Position numbers and translations under genes: made by a program. A stretch of 64,000 bases of DNA from Escherichia phage UFV-AREG1. The stretch lies in sequence record KX009778. One strand, given 5' to 3'. Below, piece after piece: positions 3,699 through 8,444 of the stretch; position 1 is the stretch's first letter, and every line of letters starts with the position of its first letter. The notes under the pieces were generated by a model. That model worked only from the letters and a program-made list of their open reading frames with translations. It was not told the origin of the DNA and ran no database searches.

Positions 3699-3775
3699 TG
3701 GCCAGGGTGAAAGGATTCTAACCTTTAACCTGCGGTTTAGAGGACCGCTACTCTATACAATTGAGTTACACCCCG
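3699..3775 (-). tRNA. tRNA-Arg (anticodon TCT), CCA encoded
   Basis: Manual cloverleaf: acceptor CGGGGTG/CACCCTG, D-stem ACTC/GAGT, anticodon stem GCGGT/ACCGC with loop CCTCTAA, T-arm AAAGG-TTAGAAT-CCTTT. Confidence 0.8.
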
Positions 3776-3901
3776 TAATTAGTTCACAGCAATACCTACT
3801 CCAACAATCAAGATGTCTTCACACGAAATTAAGAGAAAAGTGATCAGTTCAACCCTTATAATCGCGTCAAGTAGATATTAATGTGACAACTGTCACAAGT
3901 T

Positions 3902-3976
3902 TGGCGGACATGCATGGATTCGAACCATGGACCAATTGATTAACAGTCAACTGCTCTACCACTGAGCTACACATCC
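3902..3976 (-). tRNA. tRNA-Asn (anticodon GTT), CCA encoded
   Basis: Manual cloverleaf: acceptor GGATGTG/CATGTCC, D-arm GCTC-AGTGGTA-GAGC, anticodon loop CTGTTAA, T-arm CATGG-TTCGAAT-CCATG. Confidence 0.75.
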
Positions 3977-3980
3977 AAAT

Positions 3981-4067
3981 TGGTGGGGAGTGATGGAGTC
4001 GAACCACCCGAGTCGCAATGACAATGGATTTACAGTCCACACCGCTACCTCTACGGGATAACTCCCC
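3981..4067 (-). tRNA. tRNA-Tyr (anticodon GTA), type II with long variable arm, CCA encoded
   Basis: Acceptor GGGGAGT/ACTCCCC, anticodon stem GTGGA/TCCAT with loop CTGTAAA, long variable arm, T-arm GGTGG-TTCGACT-CCATC; D-arm pairing is irregular. Confidence 0.6.
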
Positions 4068-4076
4068 AAATTAATT

Positions 4077-4153
4077 TGGTGACCCAGACCAGATTTGAAC
4101 TGGTAACCTTTCCCTTATGAGGGGACTGCTGCTAACCATTGAGCTACAGGGCC
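4077..4153 (-). tRNA. tRNA with CAT anticodon (Ile-lysidine type or elongator Met), CCA encoded
   Basis: T-arm ACCAG-TTCAAAT-CTGGT, anticodon loop CTCATAA; acceptor stem has one mismatch and one G-U. Confidence 0.6.
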
Positions 4154-4154
4154 T

Positions 4155-4230
4155 TGGTGCTGATTGACGGAATCGAACCGCCGACATCCTCATTACAAGT
4201 GAGGTGCTCTACCTACTGAGCTAAATCAGC
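4155..4230 (-). tRNA. tRNA-Thr (anticodon TGT), CCA encoded
   Basis: Acceptor GCTGATT/AATCAGC, D-arm GCTC-AGTAGGTA-GAGC, anticodon stem CCTCA/TGAGG with loop CTTGTAA, T-arm GGCGG-TTCGATT-CCGTC. Confidence 0.8.
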
Positions 4231-4232
4231 AA

Positions 4233-4319
4233 CGGAGGCGATAGGATTTGAACCTATGAGTCGCCGGAGCGACTGCCGGTTTTCAAGACCGGTGCATTAA
4301 ACCACTCTGCCACGCCTCC
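4233..4319 (-). tRNA. tRNA-Ser (anticodon TGA), type II
   Basis: Acceptor GGAGGCG/CGCCTCC, anticodon stem CCGGT/ACCGG with loop CTTGAAA, long variable arm, T-arm ATAGG-TTCAAAT-CCTAT; no encoded CCA. Confidence 0.75.
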
Positions 4320-4321
4320 AG

Positions 4322-4395
4322 TCTCCATACAAGGATTTGAACCTTGGACCTCCTGATCCCAAATCAGGCGCTCTACCAAACTGAGCTACACGGAG
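4322..4395 (-). tRNA. tRNA-Pro (anticodon TGG)
   Basis: Acceptor CTCCGTG/TATGGAG (two G-U), D-arm GCTC-AGTTTGGTA-GAGC, anticodon stem CCTGA/TCAGG with loop TTTGGGA, T-arm CAAGG-TTCAAAT-CCTTG. Confidence 0.75.
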
Positions 4396-4405
4396 TAAAT
4401 TAAAT

Positions 4406-4479
<74 letters not shown>

Positions 4480-4485
4480 AAACTT

Positions 4486-4572
4486 TGGTACGAGAAGTGG
4501 GACTCGAACCCACAAGGAAATCATTCCGCAGCATTTTAAGTGCTGTGCCTTTACCAATTTGACCATTCTCGC
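4486..4572 (-). tRNA. tRNA-Leu (anticodon TAA), type II, CCA encoded
   Basis: Acceptor GCGAGAA/TTCTCGT, anticodon stem CAGCA/TGCTG with loop CTTAAAA, long variable arm, T-arm TGTGG-GTTCGAGTC-CCACT region. Confidence 0.75.
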
Positions 4573-4573
4573 G

Positions 4574-4646
4574 CTGGGAATAAAGGACTCGAACCTTTGC
4601 ATCTAGCAGTCAAAGTGCTATGCCTTACCAACTTGGCTAATTCCCA
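4574..4646 (-). tRNA. tRNA-Gln (anticodon TTG)
   Basis: Acceptor TGGGAAT/ATTCCCA, anticodon stem TAGCA/TGCTA with loop CTTTGAC, T-arm AAAGG-TTCGAGT-CCTTT. Confidence 0.75.
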
Positions 4647-4743: not shown

Positions 4744-5031
4744 TTACCATTTATGATAATACATATTTACAATGCATTCAAGACCTAAAGGATTCTTGAA
4801 AATATCATATTCAAGAGGACCTTTTTCTGTTTCAATAAAGAAATCAAAATTTACTGTATTAAATTTACGGTCTTCCTTCACTAATTTAACTTGAGAAGAT
4901 GAACGGTCAACATAAACCTTTTCAACTTCAAAACATGTTAAAATGCCATAATCATCGATCAAGGCTTTAGCTGCTTCTTGATCATATTTATATCCATTTT
5001 CAATTGACGATACTTTAGCATAAAGAATCAT
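4744..5031 (-). CDS. Hypothetical protein, 95 aa (ip-locus accessory gene)
   Basis: ORF co-oriented and tightly packed downstream of the 5034..5423 gene; no recognisable motif. Confidence 0.5.
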   Translation of the reverse strand: MILYAKVSSIENGYKYDQEAAKALIDDYGILTCFEVEKVYVDRSSSQVKLVKEDRKFNTVNFDFFIETEKGPLEYDIFKNPLGLECIVNMYYHKW

Positions 5032-5033
5032 TA

Positions 5034-5423
5034 TCAGCCTTCATCAACAATAGTATGAGTGTGGGCATTTACAATTTGCCACCAATCAAAGCGATTATAA
5101 CCATACATCGGTTTGTTTTCATTTTCTTTGATAATATCACGGAGTTCATCTTCGGTAGCGGCTTTCGCGATTAAATCAGCATATCCACCACGAGGATAAT
5201 AATTATCACCTGCAAAAAGTAAAAAGTTCGGTTTAATATTATTGAACTCTTCAAGAGTAATAACTTTTCCTGTCGGTTGAACAATCTCTACATATTTATA
5301 TCCTAATTTTTGAGCAGCATCTACTGCTTCAAGCAAAGTATCATGAGCCCATCCAATTTGACAACCTGGCTTTTCAGATGGATTAGCCTGATAATCCGCG
5401 TACACTTTATACATTCTATTCAC
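5034..5423 (-). CDS. Hypothetical protein, 129 aa (ip-locus accessory gene)
   Basis: ORF overlapping the upstream small membrane-protein gene by 8 nt (likely coupled translation); no recognisable motif. Confidence 0.5.
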   Translation of the reverse strand: MNRMYKVYADYQANPSEKPGCQIGWAHDTLLEAVDAAQKLGYKYVEIVQPTGKVITLEEFNNIKPNFLLFAGDNYYPRGGYADLIAKAATEDELRDIIKENENKPMYGYNRFDWWQIVNAHTHTIVDEG

Positions 5424-5601
5424 CTTTAGAAATTTTATCCATAACGATAGCGATTAAACCAATTAAAAATGCTACTACAAGTGAAAACACATTTTCTGCT
5501 GTAGTTAATAATCCGCATATAAATCCAGCAAACATTGAAAAACTAAAAGCAGAAGCAGAAATTGCAATAGCAACATTTCGAATTAATTCACAACGTTTCA
5601 T
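5416..5601 (-). CDS. Small membrane protein, 61 aa (start moved to internal ATG)
   Basis: Track ORF 5416..5670 extends across a promoter cassette; ATG at 5601 has GAGGAG SD; two predicted TM helices (AIAISASAFSFSMFAGFICGLL, VFSLVVAFLIGLIAIVM). Confidence 0.5.
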   Translation of the reverse strand: MKRCELIRNVAIAISASAFSFSMFAGFICGLLTTAENVFSLVVAFLIGLIAIVMDKISKGE

Positions 5602-5629
5602 TTTATTCTCCTCAGTAGTTGATAGGGTA

Positions 5630-5659
5630 ATAGTATCACTACTAAAACCCAATGTAAAC
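5630..5659 (-). promoter_or_regulatory. Early-promoter/stem-loop cassette (PeSL-like): GTTTACA-N17-TACTAT
   Basis: Minus-strand GTTTACA and TACTAT hexamers 17 nt apart, followed by the conserved GAGGAGAATAAAATG ribosome-binding module. Confidence 0.55.
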
Positions 5660-5662
5660 AAT

Positions 5663-5887
5663 TTATTCAACGCCAGCGGCTTTCAAAAGTTTTTTAAGAT
5701 TGGCAACACCTTGAGCAGAAAATGTGACCTTGCCACCTTTTTCACTGATAGAACCAACCAATTTAGCAAGTTTATCATTAGGAATTTTTTTAAAATCAGC
5801 CAATGTTCCATCAAAGGTTTTTGAAACAAAAGGCAGTTCGTCTTCGCGTCTTTTAGCTTCTACAATAAATTCTTGATATGTTTTCAT
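5663..5887 (-). CDS. Internal-protein-like protein with CTS, 74 aa
   Basis: N-terminus MKTYQEFIVEA matches the T-even capsid-targeting sequence; own promoter cassette upstream. Confidence 0.65.
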   Translation of the reverse strand: MKTYQEFIVEAKRREDELPFVSKTFDGTLADFKKIPNDKLAKLVGSISEKGGKVTFSAQGVANLKKLLKAAGVE

Positions 5888-5915
5888 TTTATTCTCCTCA
5901 GTAGTTGATAGGGTA

Positions 5916-5945
5916 ATAGTATCACTACCCCATCTAAAAGTAAAC
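5916..5945 (-). promoter_or_regulatory. Early-promoter/stem-loop cassette (PeSL-like)
   Basis: Minus-strand GTTTAC -35, TACTAT -10 lying in the loop of a GGGTA/TACCC stem, then GAGGAG SD. Confidence 0.55.
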
Positions 5946-5955
5946 GGTTTATAAA

Positions 5956-6264
5956 CTATTTTATTCCGCGTGATGCAATTGTGTTCTGCCGTTTAACGCC
6001 AGTTTGTTTAAAGTCATGATTGTCGATTTGATCGGTACGAGCAACTCCGAATGATGATTTGATCTTAGCTTTAGATCCTTTAGTTATAGAAATAAACATC
6101 TCGGAAGCCCCTTTCTTAAAGTCCGAAGCGATTACTTCAACGCCGTTCTTAGCAAGTGACTTCAGAATTGCCTCTGCATACTCATCGTCAAGACTCGTCT
6201 GAGTATTAATAACGAATGTCTTTGGCGCAGCCGCTTCATTGATAAATTCTTTGAAAGTTTTCAT
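5956..6264 (-). CDS. Internal-protein-like protein with CTS, 102 aa
   Basis: N-terminus MKTFKEFINEA (CTS); own promoter cassette upstream. Confidence 0.65.
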   Translation of the reverse strand: MKTFKEFINEAAAPKTFVINTQTSLDDEYAEAILKSLAKNGVEVIASDFKKGASEMFISITKGSKAKIKSSFGVARTDQIDNHDFKQTGVKRQNTIASRGIK

Positions 6265-6294
6265 TTTATTTTCCTAATTAAGTTTGATGAGATA

Positions 6295-6324
6295 ATAGTA
6301 TCACAACCCTATTTAAAAGTAAAC
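6295..6324 (-). promoter_or_regulatory. Early-promoter/stem-loop cassette (PeSL-like)
   Basis: Minus-strand GTTTAC -35 overlapping the stop of the upstream gene, TACTAT -10, then AGGAAAATAAAATG. Confidence 0.5.
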
Positions 6325-6597
6325 TCATTTTAAATAAATTGCGTATTTTTTATAACCCGCTGACTCATGACGAAGACCCTTATCATTAGCAAAACGCTCA
6401 ATGTTGTTAATTTGATTCTGGTCAAGTTCAGAGATGTCAAACACGAAAAAGTTACGTTTGTTACCAACTGTTACATAGTCAGTTAAATCAATATCATATA
6501 GGTAATTGATGTCAGCAATCAAAGTCTTGACAGCTTTGCTAATTTTTACTTTTTCGTTAAAAGTAGCTTCATTGATAAATTCTTGATATGTTTTCAT
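6325..6597 (-). CDS. Internal-protein-like protein with CTS, 90 aa
   Basis: N-terminus MKTYQEFINEA (CTS); own promoter cassette upstream. Confidence 0.65.
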   Translation of the reverse strand: MKTYQEFINEATFNEKVKISKAVKTLIADINYLYDIDLTDYVTVGNKRNFFVFDISELDQNQINNIERFANDKGLRHESAGYKKYAIYLK

Positions 6598-6625
6598 TTT
6601 ATTCTCCTCAGTAGTTGATAGGGTA

Positions 6626-6655
6626 ATAATATCACAACTAAAACCCTATGTAAAT
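6626..6655 (-). promoter_or_regulatory. Early-promoter/stem-loop cassette (PeSL-like)
   Basis: Minus-strand ATTTACA -35, 17-nt spacer, TATTAT -10, then GAGGAGAATAAAATG. Confidence 0.5.
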
Positions 6656-6673
6656 AACTTTGTGAAAAATTTA

Positions 6674-6961
6674 TTACAAAAGATTTTTAGCAATAATCTT
6701 GAGATGTGCCGCAGAAATGTGTTTAGCTTTAAACAACGCAGTTTCTTCAGCAGGAGAGATAACGATTGTAGCACCATCCTTTTTAGCAGACCACCCATCG
6801 CCTAGGTAAACAGTACCTTTGATTTCTTCGCCATCAACCAGACTAATCATTGGTTTACCTTCTCGTCCTTTATTTGCTTTAATAACTTCAGAAGTAAGAG
6901 TAGCTTCGGTAATAGTAGAAACCGGGGTAGTTGTAGAAGTAAATTCTTTGAAAGTTTTCAT
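6674..6961 (-). CDS. ipI: Internal protein I (IPI)-like, 95 aa; predicted 19-aa CTS leaving a 76-aa mature protein
   Basis: N-terminus MKTFKEFTSTTTPVSTITE|A with ITE gp21 cleavage motif; 95 aa precursor / 76 aa mature matches T4 IPI; located next to 57B as in T4. Confidence 0.7.
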   Translation of the reverse strand: MKTFKEFTSTTTPVSTITEATLTSEVIKANKGREGKPMISLVDGEEIKGTVYLGDGWSAKKDGATIVISPAEETALFKAKHISAAHLKIIAKNLL

Positions 6962-6982
6962 TTTATTTTCCTAATTAATTTT

Positions 6983-7021
6983 GATGAGGTAATAGTATCA
7001 CTACCTCATCAGTATGTAAAC
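6983..7021 (-). promoter_or_regulatory. Early-promoter/stem-loop cassette (PeSL-like) with perfect 9-bp hairpin
   Basis: Minus-strand GTTTACA-N17-TACTAT; the -10 lies in the loop of gatgaggta / tacctcatc (6983..7010). Confidence 0.6.
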
Positions 7022-7033
7022 AACTTTGTGAAA

Positions 7034-7730
<697 letters not shown>

Positions 7731-7731
<1 letters not shown>

Positions 7732-8444
7732 TATAGTACCTTTAGTGTATTTTTAATTTTAGAAAAAAGTTCTTCAAGAGAACCATCGTTTGTAATTACT
7801 AAATCGCCACCACGAATTGGCAATCCAGCTTCTGTAATGTGTGTATCATTGGATTTTTGACCAGGACGAACTACATGAATTACTGTAGCACCCATCGCCC
7901 TAGCCGCATCCATTTCATGATCTTGACGAGTATCAGGAACGATATAATAATCATAACCTGAGTTAAATTTATCAAGATAATCTAAAGCAAATAATTTTAC
8001 CCAGTACATGCGGTCGAAGTTATTAACAATCAAATCCGTACCTAGGGCTTGCATCAGACGACGGACTGACCATTGATCTTCAATATTATTTATAACATCA
8101 GTAATTTTGTTAAATGTTACGAAATTAACTGCGTCATCAAAAACAAACACACCTTTAATTGGGCTTTTACTATTAAGATAGCAAAATGCTTGTTCCATAA
8201 TCGTAATTACTTCTAATTTAGTCAGATTTAAATTAGTTTCACGATCATAGTCAATTCCTTCAAACTCTTTACGAGTTAAACAAGGATAGTCAGTGTTTGC
8301 TGCAAATACACCCCATGCATAAGCCAATGCATCCTTAATAGGACCAGCAAGTTGATATTTAACTGCAGAATAATTGCTCATGATAAAATCAGCAGTAGTA
8401 TCTTTTCCACTACGCTTTACACCGCTTAAAAAGATTAGTTTCAT
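7731..8444 (-). CDS. 1: gp1 deoxynucleoside monophosphate kinase
   Basis: P-loop GVKRSGKDT near N-terminus; start moved to ATG at 8444 with GAGGAG SD (track ORF has 13-aa extension); position matches T4. Confidence 0.85.

Follow-up and report, generated by a model that had tools for sequence, protein, structure and literature searches.

All four proteins that carry a capsid-targeting sequence (CTS) and have a known target inhibit type IV restriction. Three of them, Ip1, Ip2, and Ip3, act on distinct GmrSD enzymes (PMC12373910), and the fourth, Bas37_0260, a CTS protein of phage Bas37 encoded at the internal-protein (ip) locus treated here, inhibits McrBC (bioRxiv 10.1101/2025.11.20.689424). 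T4 IPI*, the mature form of IPI, inhibits one such type IV restriction enzyme, the GmrSD of E. coli CT596 (PMC12373910, PMC9026906). Here we analyze a stretch of 64,000 nucleotides from Escherichia phage UFV-AREG1 (sequence record KX009778; hereafter the window), in which the region between 57B and tRNA.4 is very probably the known hyperplastic internal-protein locus of Tequatrovirus, built from four independent gene cassettes: ipI, ip9, ip7, and ip8. This confidence covers what the locus is and how it is built; what Ip9, Ip7, and Ip8 do is graded separately, and lower. The source phage is itself a Tequatrovirus: over 25 kb it shares ~96% identity with several phages already sequenced. The locus has been published, as have its proteins, its cassettes, and the idea of anti-restriction, and all are ordinary for T4-like phages; the remaining interest lies in which defenses Ip9, Ip7, and Ip8 target.

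A preliminary description of this DNA had proposed four small CTS-bearing open reading frames (ORFs) of 74, 102, 90, and 95 amino acids (aa) in a hyperplastic ip locus adjoining 57B. All four are present on the minus strand with these lengths. When the six frames of the window were searched with a relaxed regular expression for the CTS N terminus, matches were limited to these four ORFs, so that the observation is real and not a chance pattern. The assignment of the locus was also borne out, both by 57B, which is 99% identical to T4 57B, and by the slot that follows it, which across 30 related loci (gathered via 57B and from GenBank) holds zero to four CTS ORFs whose order varies and which represent at least 15 families. 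The genes of the locus and its two flanks are as follows.

7034..7489, minus strand: 57B, 151-aa ORF, conserved upstream flank of the locus
6674..6961, minus strand: ipI, 95 aa, 19-aa CTS propeptide followed by the 76-aa mature IPI*
6325..6597, minus strand: ip9, 90 aa, 10-aa CTS MKTYQEFINE, cut predicted before A, mature protein of 80 aa with an isoelectric point (pI) of 8.2
5956..6264, minus strand: ip7, 102 aa, 10-aa CTS MKTFKEFINE, cut predicted before A, mature protein of 92 aa, pI 9.7
5663..5887, minus strand: ip8, 74 aa, 10-aa CTS MKTYQEFIVE, cut predicted before A, mature protein of 64 aa, pI 9.8
5416..5601, minus strand: tRNA.4, 61 aa, hydrophobic, without a CTS, 98% identical to T4 trna.4, phrog_1692, conserved downstream flank

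The 95-aa protein had been taken for IPI with a 19-aa leader and a 76-aa mature part, and this identification is confirmed on three counts. It is identical to T4 IPI at 95/95 residues, with the leader MKTFKEFTSTTTPVSTITE followed by A (19 aa, of the form MKTFKEFTST..ITE before the cut). Residues 20-95 are identical to PDB 2JUB chain A, the solved IPI* structure, and the protein belongs to Pfam family PF11634 (IPI_T4; E 7e-54, 180 bits against a 25-bit cut-off). Given 100% identity to the characterized T4 protein, IPI* of the window is predicted to block the CT596 GmrSD.

The other three proteins had been described as different from T4 IPII and IPIII and as unassigned, possibly new effectors. 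The first of these statements is correct: likeness to IPII and IPIII is confined to the first 10-12 residues, the four proteins are not simply IPI, IPII, and IPIII, and the claim to that extent survives, as known biology. The second fails. Compared with RB15 proteins of equal length, Ip9, Ip7, and Ip8 show 94.4%, 99.0%, and 97.3% identity, respectively; they match PHROG profiles phrog_7673 (ip9, E 4e-55), phrog_2667 (ip7, E 5e-41), and phrog_8765 (ip8, E 2e-25), and all four CTS proteins fall in PHROGs labeled internal head or virion protein. The names Ip9, Ip7, and Ip8 reportedly date from 1994. In a tblastn search of 50,697 phage records with the mature parts, Ip7 was found in 282, Ip9 in 192, and Ip8 in 106. 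Phage KIT06 also has the order 57B-ipI-ip9-ip7-ip8-tRNA.4, with ip8 truncated to 42 aa, and phage EP01 matches across the whole 1.7 kb at 94% (ip8 at 83%). Pfam returned only sub-threshold noise for Ip9, Ip7, and Ip8, and profile and single-sequence searches of the PDB gave nothing significant for the three. Separately, protein P0014 of phage OLB35 (77 aa, annotated as "ip7 protein") is a hybrid, Ip7 in its N-terminal half (from about residue 28) and Ip9 in its last 35 residues (80% identity), which suggests either a deletion or recombination that fused adjacent ip7 and ip9 or an assembly error.

Published rules for the CTS assign residues 4 and 7 to targeting and residues 8 and 10 to processing (Kuhn and Thomas review, PMC9026906). 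Ip9, Ip7, and Ip8 all have Y or F at position 4, F7, I8, and E10, in keeping with an aromatic residue at 4 and 7, I or L at 8, and Glu at 10. Because the residues for targeting and processing are intact, all three proteins should enter the prohead, be cut by gp21, and be injected. On the pattern described in the literature for T4 IPI and IPIII, the CTS would steer each protein into the prohead core, where the prohead protease gp21 would cleave after Glu10 (Glu19 in IPI) at an I/L-x-E motif. Several hundred copies of the small mature protein would then stay inside the capsid and enter the host along with the DNA, which would allow them to act before any phage gene is expressed.

Each gene of the locus is preceded by a repeat of 60-76 nt that comprises TTTAC(A/T)-N17-TA(C/T)TAT, usually an inverted repeat around the -10 box, a conserved ribosome-binding region, and ATGAAA. 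These cassettes are the published promoter-early stem-loop (PeSL) elements, whose T4/PST consensus is TTTACW-N17-TAYWAT and whose concept has been traced to the IP locus by Comeau et al. 2014 (PMC4122927). The consensus occurs at 6 sites in 64 kb, and 5 of them lie inside one 1.4-kb stretch, all on the minus strand and directly upstream of a gene. The preliminary description had given each CTS gene its own promoter/stem-loop cassette. The promoters are indeed there, but there are five cassettes, the fifth of which drives tRNA.4, and the stem-loop is weak before tRNA.4 and lost before ip7.

6962..7033, minus strand: PeSL before ipI, promoter TTTACA-N17-TACTAT at 6992-7020, type-B ribosome-binding region TTAATTAGGAAAATAAAATG
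6598..6673, minus strand: PeSL before ip9, promoter TTTACA-N17-TATTAT at 6626-6654, interrupted 7+4-bp hairpin, type-A ribosome-binding region CTACTGAGGAGAATAAAATG
6265..6324, minus strand: PeSL before ip7, promoter TTTACT-N17-TACTAT at 6295-6323, hairpin degenerate and essentially lost (z -0.1)
5888..5955, minus strand: PeSL before ip8, promoter TTTACT-N17-TACTAT at 5916-5944, type-A ribosome-binding region
5602..5662, minus strand: PeSL before tRNA.4, promoter TTTACA-N17-TACTAT at 5630-5658, weak hairpin, right copy of a 69-bp direct repeat (5596-5664)

The two strong hairpins are those before ipI (13 bp, ~6982-7011, enclosing the -10 element; -17.4 kcal/mol, z -3.4), in a PeSL near-identical to the T4 sequence upstream of ipI, and before ip8 (12 bp, ~5907-5934; -16.1 kcal/mol). 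Across the 30 related loci, 40/52 unique promoter-like segments place the -10 box within a helix of 6 bp or more (median z -3.55); in sequence the stems belong to several unrelated classes, e.g., GATGAGGTA, ATAGGGT, AGGTCTATAG, and GATGGGATAA. Recurrence of the enclosing helix across unrelated stem sequences indicates that structure rather than sequence is kept, as expected if the hairpin is under selection. The hairpins lack a U-tract and are thus unlike a classical terminator. A search for intrinsic terminators found none at the cassettes and one match inside ip8 (5724-5736), a count equal to the shuffle expectation.

At their 3' ends the cassettes are of two subtypes. Type A (CTACTGAGGAGAATAAAATG then MKTYQEF) stands before ip9 and ip8, and also before the CTS-less tRNA.4; type B (TTAATTAGGAAAATAAAATG then MKTFKEF) stands before ipI and ip7. 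Among Tevenvirinae loci after 57B, L012 (629-1130), L014, L015, L016, and L019 have ip8 followed directly by ip9 with no PeSL between them, in the reverse of the window's order, and the ip8 stop overlaps the ip9 start in ...GAATAAAATG; the rule of one cassette per gene is therefore not universal.

Comparison with T4 indicates how this arrangement may have arisen. By blastn, window 7582-6592 corresponds to T4 74500-73509 and window 5664-5412 to T4 73577-73326. The two genomes are collinear through 57B, ipI, and the next PeSL up to the ATGAAA of the following gene, and the window rejoins T4 at the tRNA.4 PeSL. Between these points lie 996 bp (5665..6660, minus strand) that are absent from T4 and contain ip9, ip7, and ip8 with their PeSLs. 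The same 69 bp of T4 aligns at both ends of this insert, and the two window copies are identical at 64/69 positions. The left copy (6592-6660) belongs to the ip9 PeSL, which is collinear with the T4 PeSL that precedes trna.4. Homologous exchange between PeSLs would be expected to leave a trace of this kind, an indel (here of 996 bp) bounded by PeSL repeats (of 69 bp).

The ip7 PeSL is a chimera of two stem classes: its left arm belongs to the ATAGGGT class, its right arm to the TCTCATC class, and the two meet in the invariant GTGATACTATTA core. This mixed origin accounts for the lost hairpin; the same degraded form is present in RB15, RB32, and KIT06. PeSLs are thus associated with indels and replacements among close relatives, both at the 996-bp indel and in the variable slot of the 30 loci. 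A likely mechanism is that near-identical PeSLs together with common CTS codons provide portable homology for recombination between coinfecting phages. Relative to T4, an RB15-type ip9-ip7-ip8 block would have been gained by exchange between two PeSLs while the T4 ipI was retained.

The effector part of Ip9 extends beyond this group. CTS-less relatives of its mature domain (window 6328-6567, minus strand) exist outside Tevenvirinae, in the following phages.

L004 2504-2722: Guernseyvirinae phage M01, stand-alone 72-aa ORF, 49% identity to the Ip9 domain
L005 2492-2716: Seuratvirus ECP2304, unannotated ORF of ~74 aa, 43% identity to the Ip9 domain
L006 455-2734: Kuttervirus SeKF_19, 759-aa phrog_3867 protein of unknown function, Ip9 domain in the C-terminal part, 36% identity

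An 861-aa variant of the last (P0037) has the domain internally, at residues 665-735. An exhaustive HMMER search with mature Ip9 recovered only 8 representative clusters, which makes this a small family. An alignment-based search found many 72-aa CTS-less relatives in siphovirus contigs of ~41-45 kb, where they are the first gene after a divergent intergenic region. This distribution suggests that T-even phages captured a preexisting cytoplasmic effector behind a PeSL and CTS cassette. As a tentative extension, the Ip9 effector domain could be a mobile anti-defense module that comes in three forms: CTS-bearing in T4-like phages, free-standing (~72 aa) at the start of an accessory-gene operon in siphoviruses of the Guernseyvirinae type and Seuratvirus, and near the C terminus of a 759-861-aa Kuttervirus protein. 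If so, T-even phages would convert early cytoplasmic inhibitors into premade, injected ones by recombination behind PeSL and CTS, and Ip9 would be aimed at a defense shared by the hosts of widely differing phages, not at one specific to glucosyl-hydroxymethylcytosine DNA. The presence of a CTS-less Ip9 domain in unrelated phages, which we did not find stated in the literature examined, may be a new if modest point, and these relatives offer a simpler system for target finding.

We think it probable that Ip9, Ip7, and Ip8 are injected, narrow-specificity inhibitors of host defenses acting on incoming modified DNA, a judgment that refers to anti-defense in general. The narrower proposal, that they target another type IV restriction enzyme, the likeliest kind of target, we regard as evenly balanced. 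The earlier suggestion that injected internal proteins are anti-restriction candidates is credible on the precedents of Ip1, Ip2, Ip3, and Bas37_0260 (the last, at 77 aa, is not among the proteins of the window). Since every deorphanized internal protein has revealed a distinct type IV restriction enzyme, Ip9, Ip7, and Ip8 are reasonable probes for further, possibly unrecognized, defenses.

Several results weigh against this interpretation. The plaque assays against type IV systems that had been proposed at the outset are largely published: Silas et al. 2025 expressed ip4-10 against GmrSD variants and found no reproducible interaction, and the seeming interactions of ip7 with CLS_011 and of ip8 with CLS_018-019 did not hold up in plaque assays run in triplicate (PMC12373910, Suppl. 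Fig. 9). The AlphaFold2 model of Ip9 has an alpha-beta-beta-alpha-beta-beta fold (predicted local distance difference test, pLDDT, 88) and that of Ip7 a ferredoxin-like core at residues 15-65 with a low-confidence basic tail (pLDDT 69); both are generic small alpha/beta folds with no informative neighbor and no resemblance to IPI*. More broadly, comparison of Ip9, Ip7, and Ip8 by sequence and fold with the type IV inhibitors IPI*, Ip2, and Ip3 found no likeness beyond the CTS. We found no report of virion proteomics for Ip7, Ip8, or Ip9 in the searchable literature. The expression signals also count against the interpretation: the only promoters visible in the locus are of the early, sigma-70 type, the late promoter consensus TATAAATA has no match within the locus, and its nearest upstream occurrence on the ip strand lies at 8087-8094 (minus strand), inside gene 1 (deoxynucleoside monophosphate kinase).

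Read-through from 8087-8094 may underlie late expression of 57A, 57B, and the ip genes. In four related loci (L009 3684, L012 2909, L014 3133, and L015 3952), larger CTS-like proteins of 154-157 aa (MK[ST]Y.EFL.E..) are encoded further downstream, and upstream of their genes lie a GC-rich hairpin that carries a T-run and an exact late promoter TATAAATA, unlike the early-type PeSLs of the small ip genes.

It is possible, though doubtful, that the three proteins are injected anti-defense factors directed at targets other than type IV enzymes, namely other first-response defenses that detect or attack the DNA on entry or its injection. The negative GmrSD results for ip4-10, the folds unlike that of IPI*, and the occurrence of the Ip9 domain outside the T-even group, in Guernseyvirinae, Seuratvirus, and Kuttervirus, would all fit such targets. 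Nevertheless, the 4/4 characterized CTS proteins act on type IV enzymes, the very diverse GmrSD family was sampled only through representative clusters, and we found no report of assays of Ip7, Ip8, and Ip9 against McrBC, McrA, Mrr, or other modification-dependent nucleases.

The basic character of the mature forms (pI 8.2, 9.7, and 9.8), the ~360 copies of T4 internal proteins per head, the slower head assembly when IPIII is lost (PMC9026906), and the lack of inhibition of the tested GmrSD variants would also be expected of proteins that are mainly structural, aiding core assembly or neutralizing the charge of packaged DNA with no specific host target. We consider such a role unlikely: the three proteins are unrelated in sequence and fold, their patchy distribution and free swapping between phages suit accessory functions, not a structural requirement, the CTS proteins whose targets are known (4/4) are all enzyme inhibitors, and Ip9 relatives occur in phages without the CTS system. 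Finally, early-type promoters with no late consensus in the locus, CTS-less Ip9 relatives that presumably work as ordinary early genes, and the cytoplasmic activity of IPIII expressed in the host without its CTS (PMC9391042) might point to proteins that are made early and act within the newly infected cell, their packaging too low to be of use and their CTS a relic, but this is very unlikely because targeting and cleavage residues are intact in all three and conserved across families, T4 ipI shares the promoter arrangement and yet IPI is packaged at ~360 copies (PMC9026906), and PeSL hairpins without a U-tract make read-through from the late promoter at 8087-8094 possible.

The locus had been placed between the tRNA array and 57B, which is correct except that three additional genes without a CTS, tRNA.2, tRNA.3, and tRNA.4, intervene. 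Two of these genes and the array lie as follows.

5034-5423: tRNA.3, without a CTS, assigned from position and size on the T4 and RB32 maps, not from sequence
4744-5031: tRNA.2, without a CTS, assigned in the same way
3699-4646: tRNA array, ten genes

The product of tRNA.4 is strongly hydrophobic (grand average of hydropathy 1.18) and is encoded in the same type of cassette as the ip genes, with no CTS. An 84-aa ORF with a TTG start at 5416-5670 (minus strand) was rejected as an artefact of the ORF rule that extends through the PeSL; the true tRNA.4 start is the ATG at 5601. A scan with Rfam matched only tRNAs and nothing within the ip locus. In the array, a 126-nt gap between tRNA-Arg and tRNA-Asn (3776-3901) contains no tRNA according to ARAGORN or Rfam, and phage Bas37 has a tRNA-His beside tRNA-Arg at the matching place. 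The array of the window also lacks segB, which interrupts the array of T4.

Among known loci, that of RB15 has the same position (57B ... tRNA.4), the same ip9-ip7-ip8 order, 94-99% protein identity, and the same intergenic cassettes, but RB15 carries ip5 beside 57B where this phage carries the ipI of T4. In the T4 ipI locus (NC_000866, 73.3-74.4 kb), 57B, ipI, and tRNA.4 are 98-100% identical to those of the window and the same PeSLs flank ipI, whereas the T4 slot holds ipI only and the window is 996 bp longer. Like the published PeSLs (Arbiol et al. 2010, PMC2839356; Comeau et al. 2014, PMC4122927), the cassettes combine a T4/PST-type consensus with an overlapping stem-loop and flank variable ORFs in a hyperplastic region; in the window, homology takes in the ribosome-binding site as well and reaches the CTS codons, with subtypes A (MKTYQEF) and B (MKTFKEF). 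With Ip1, Ip2, Ip3, and Bas37_0260, the proteins of the locus share small size and a CTS, and Ip1 and Bas37_0260 share the locus itself, while Ip9, Ip7, and Ip8 differ from these inhibitors in sequence and fold as far as detected, with the CTS as their common part.

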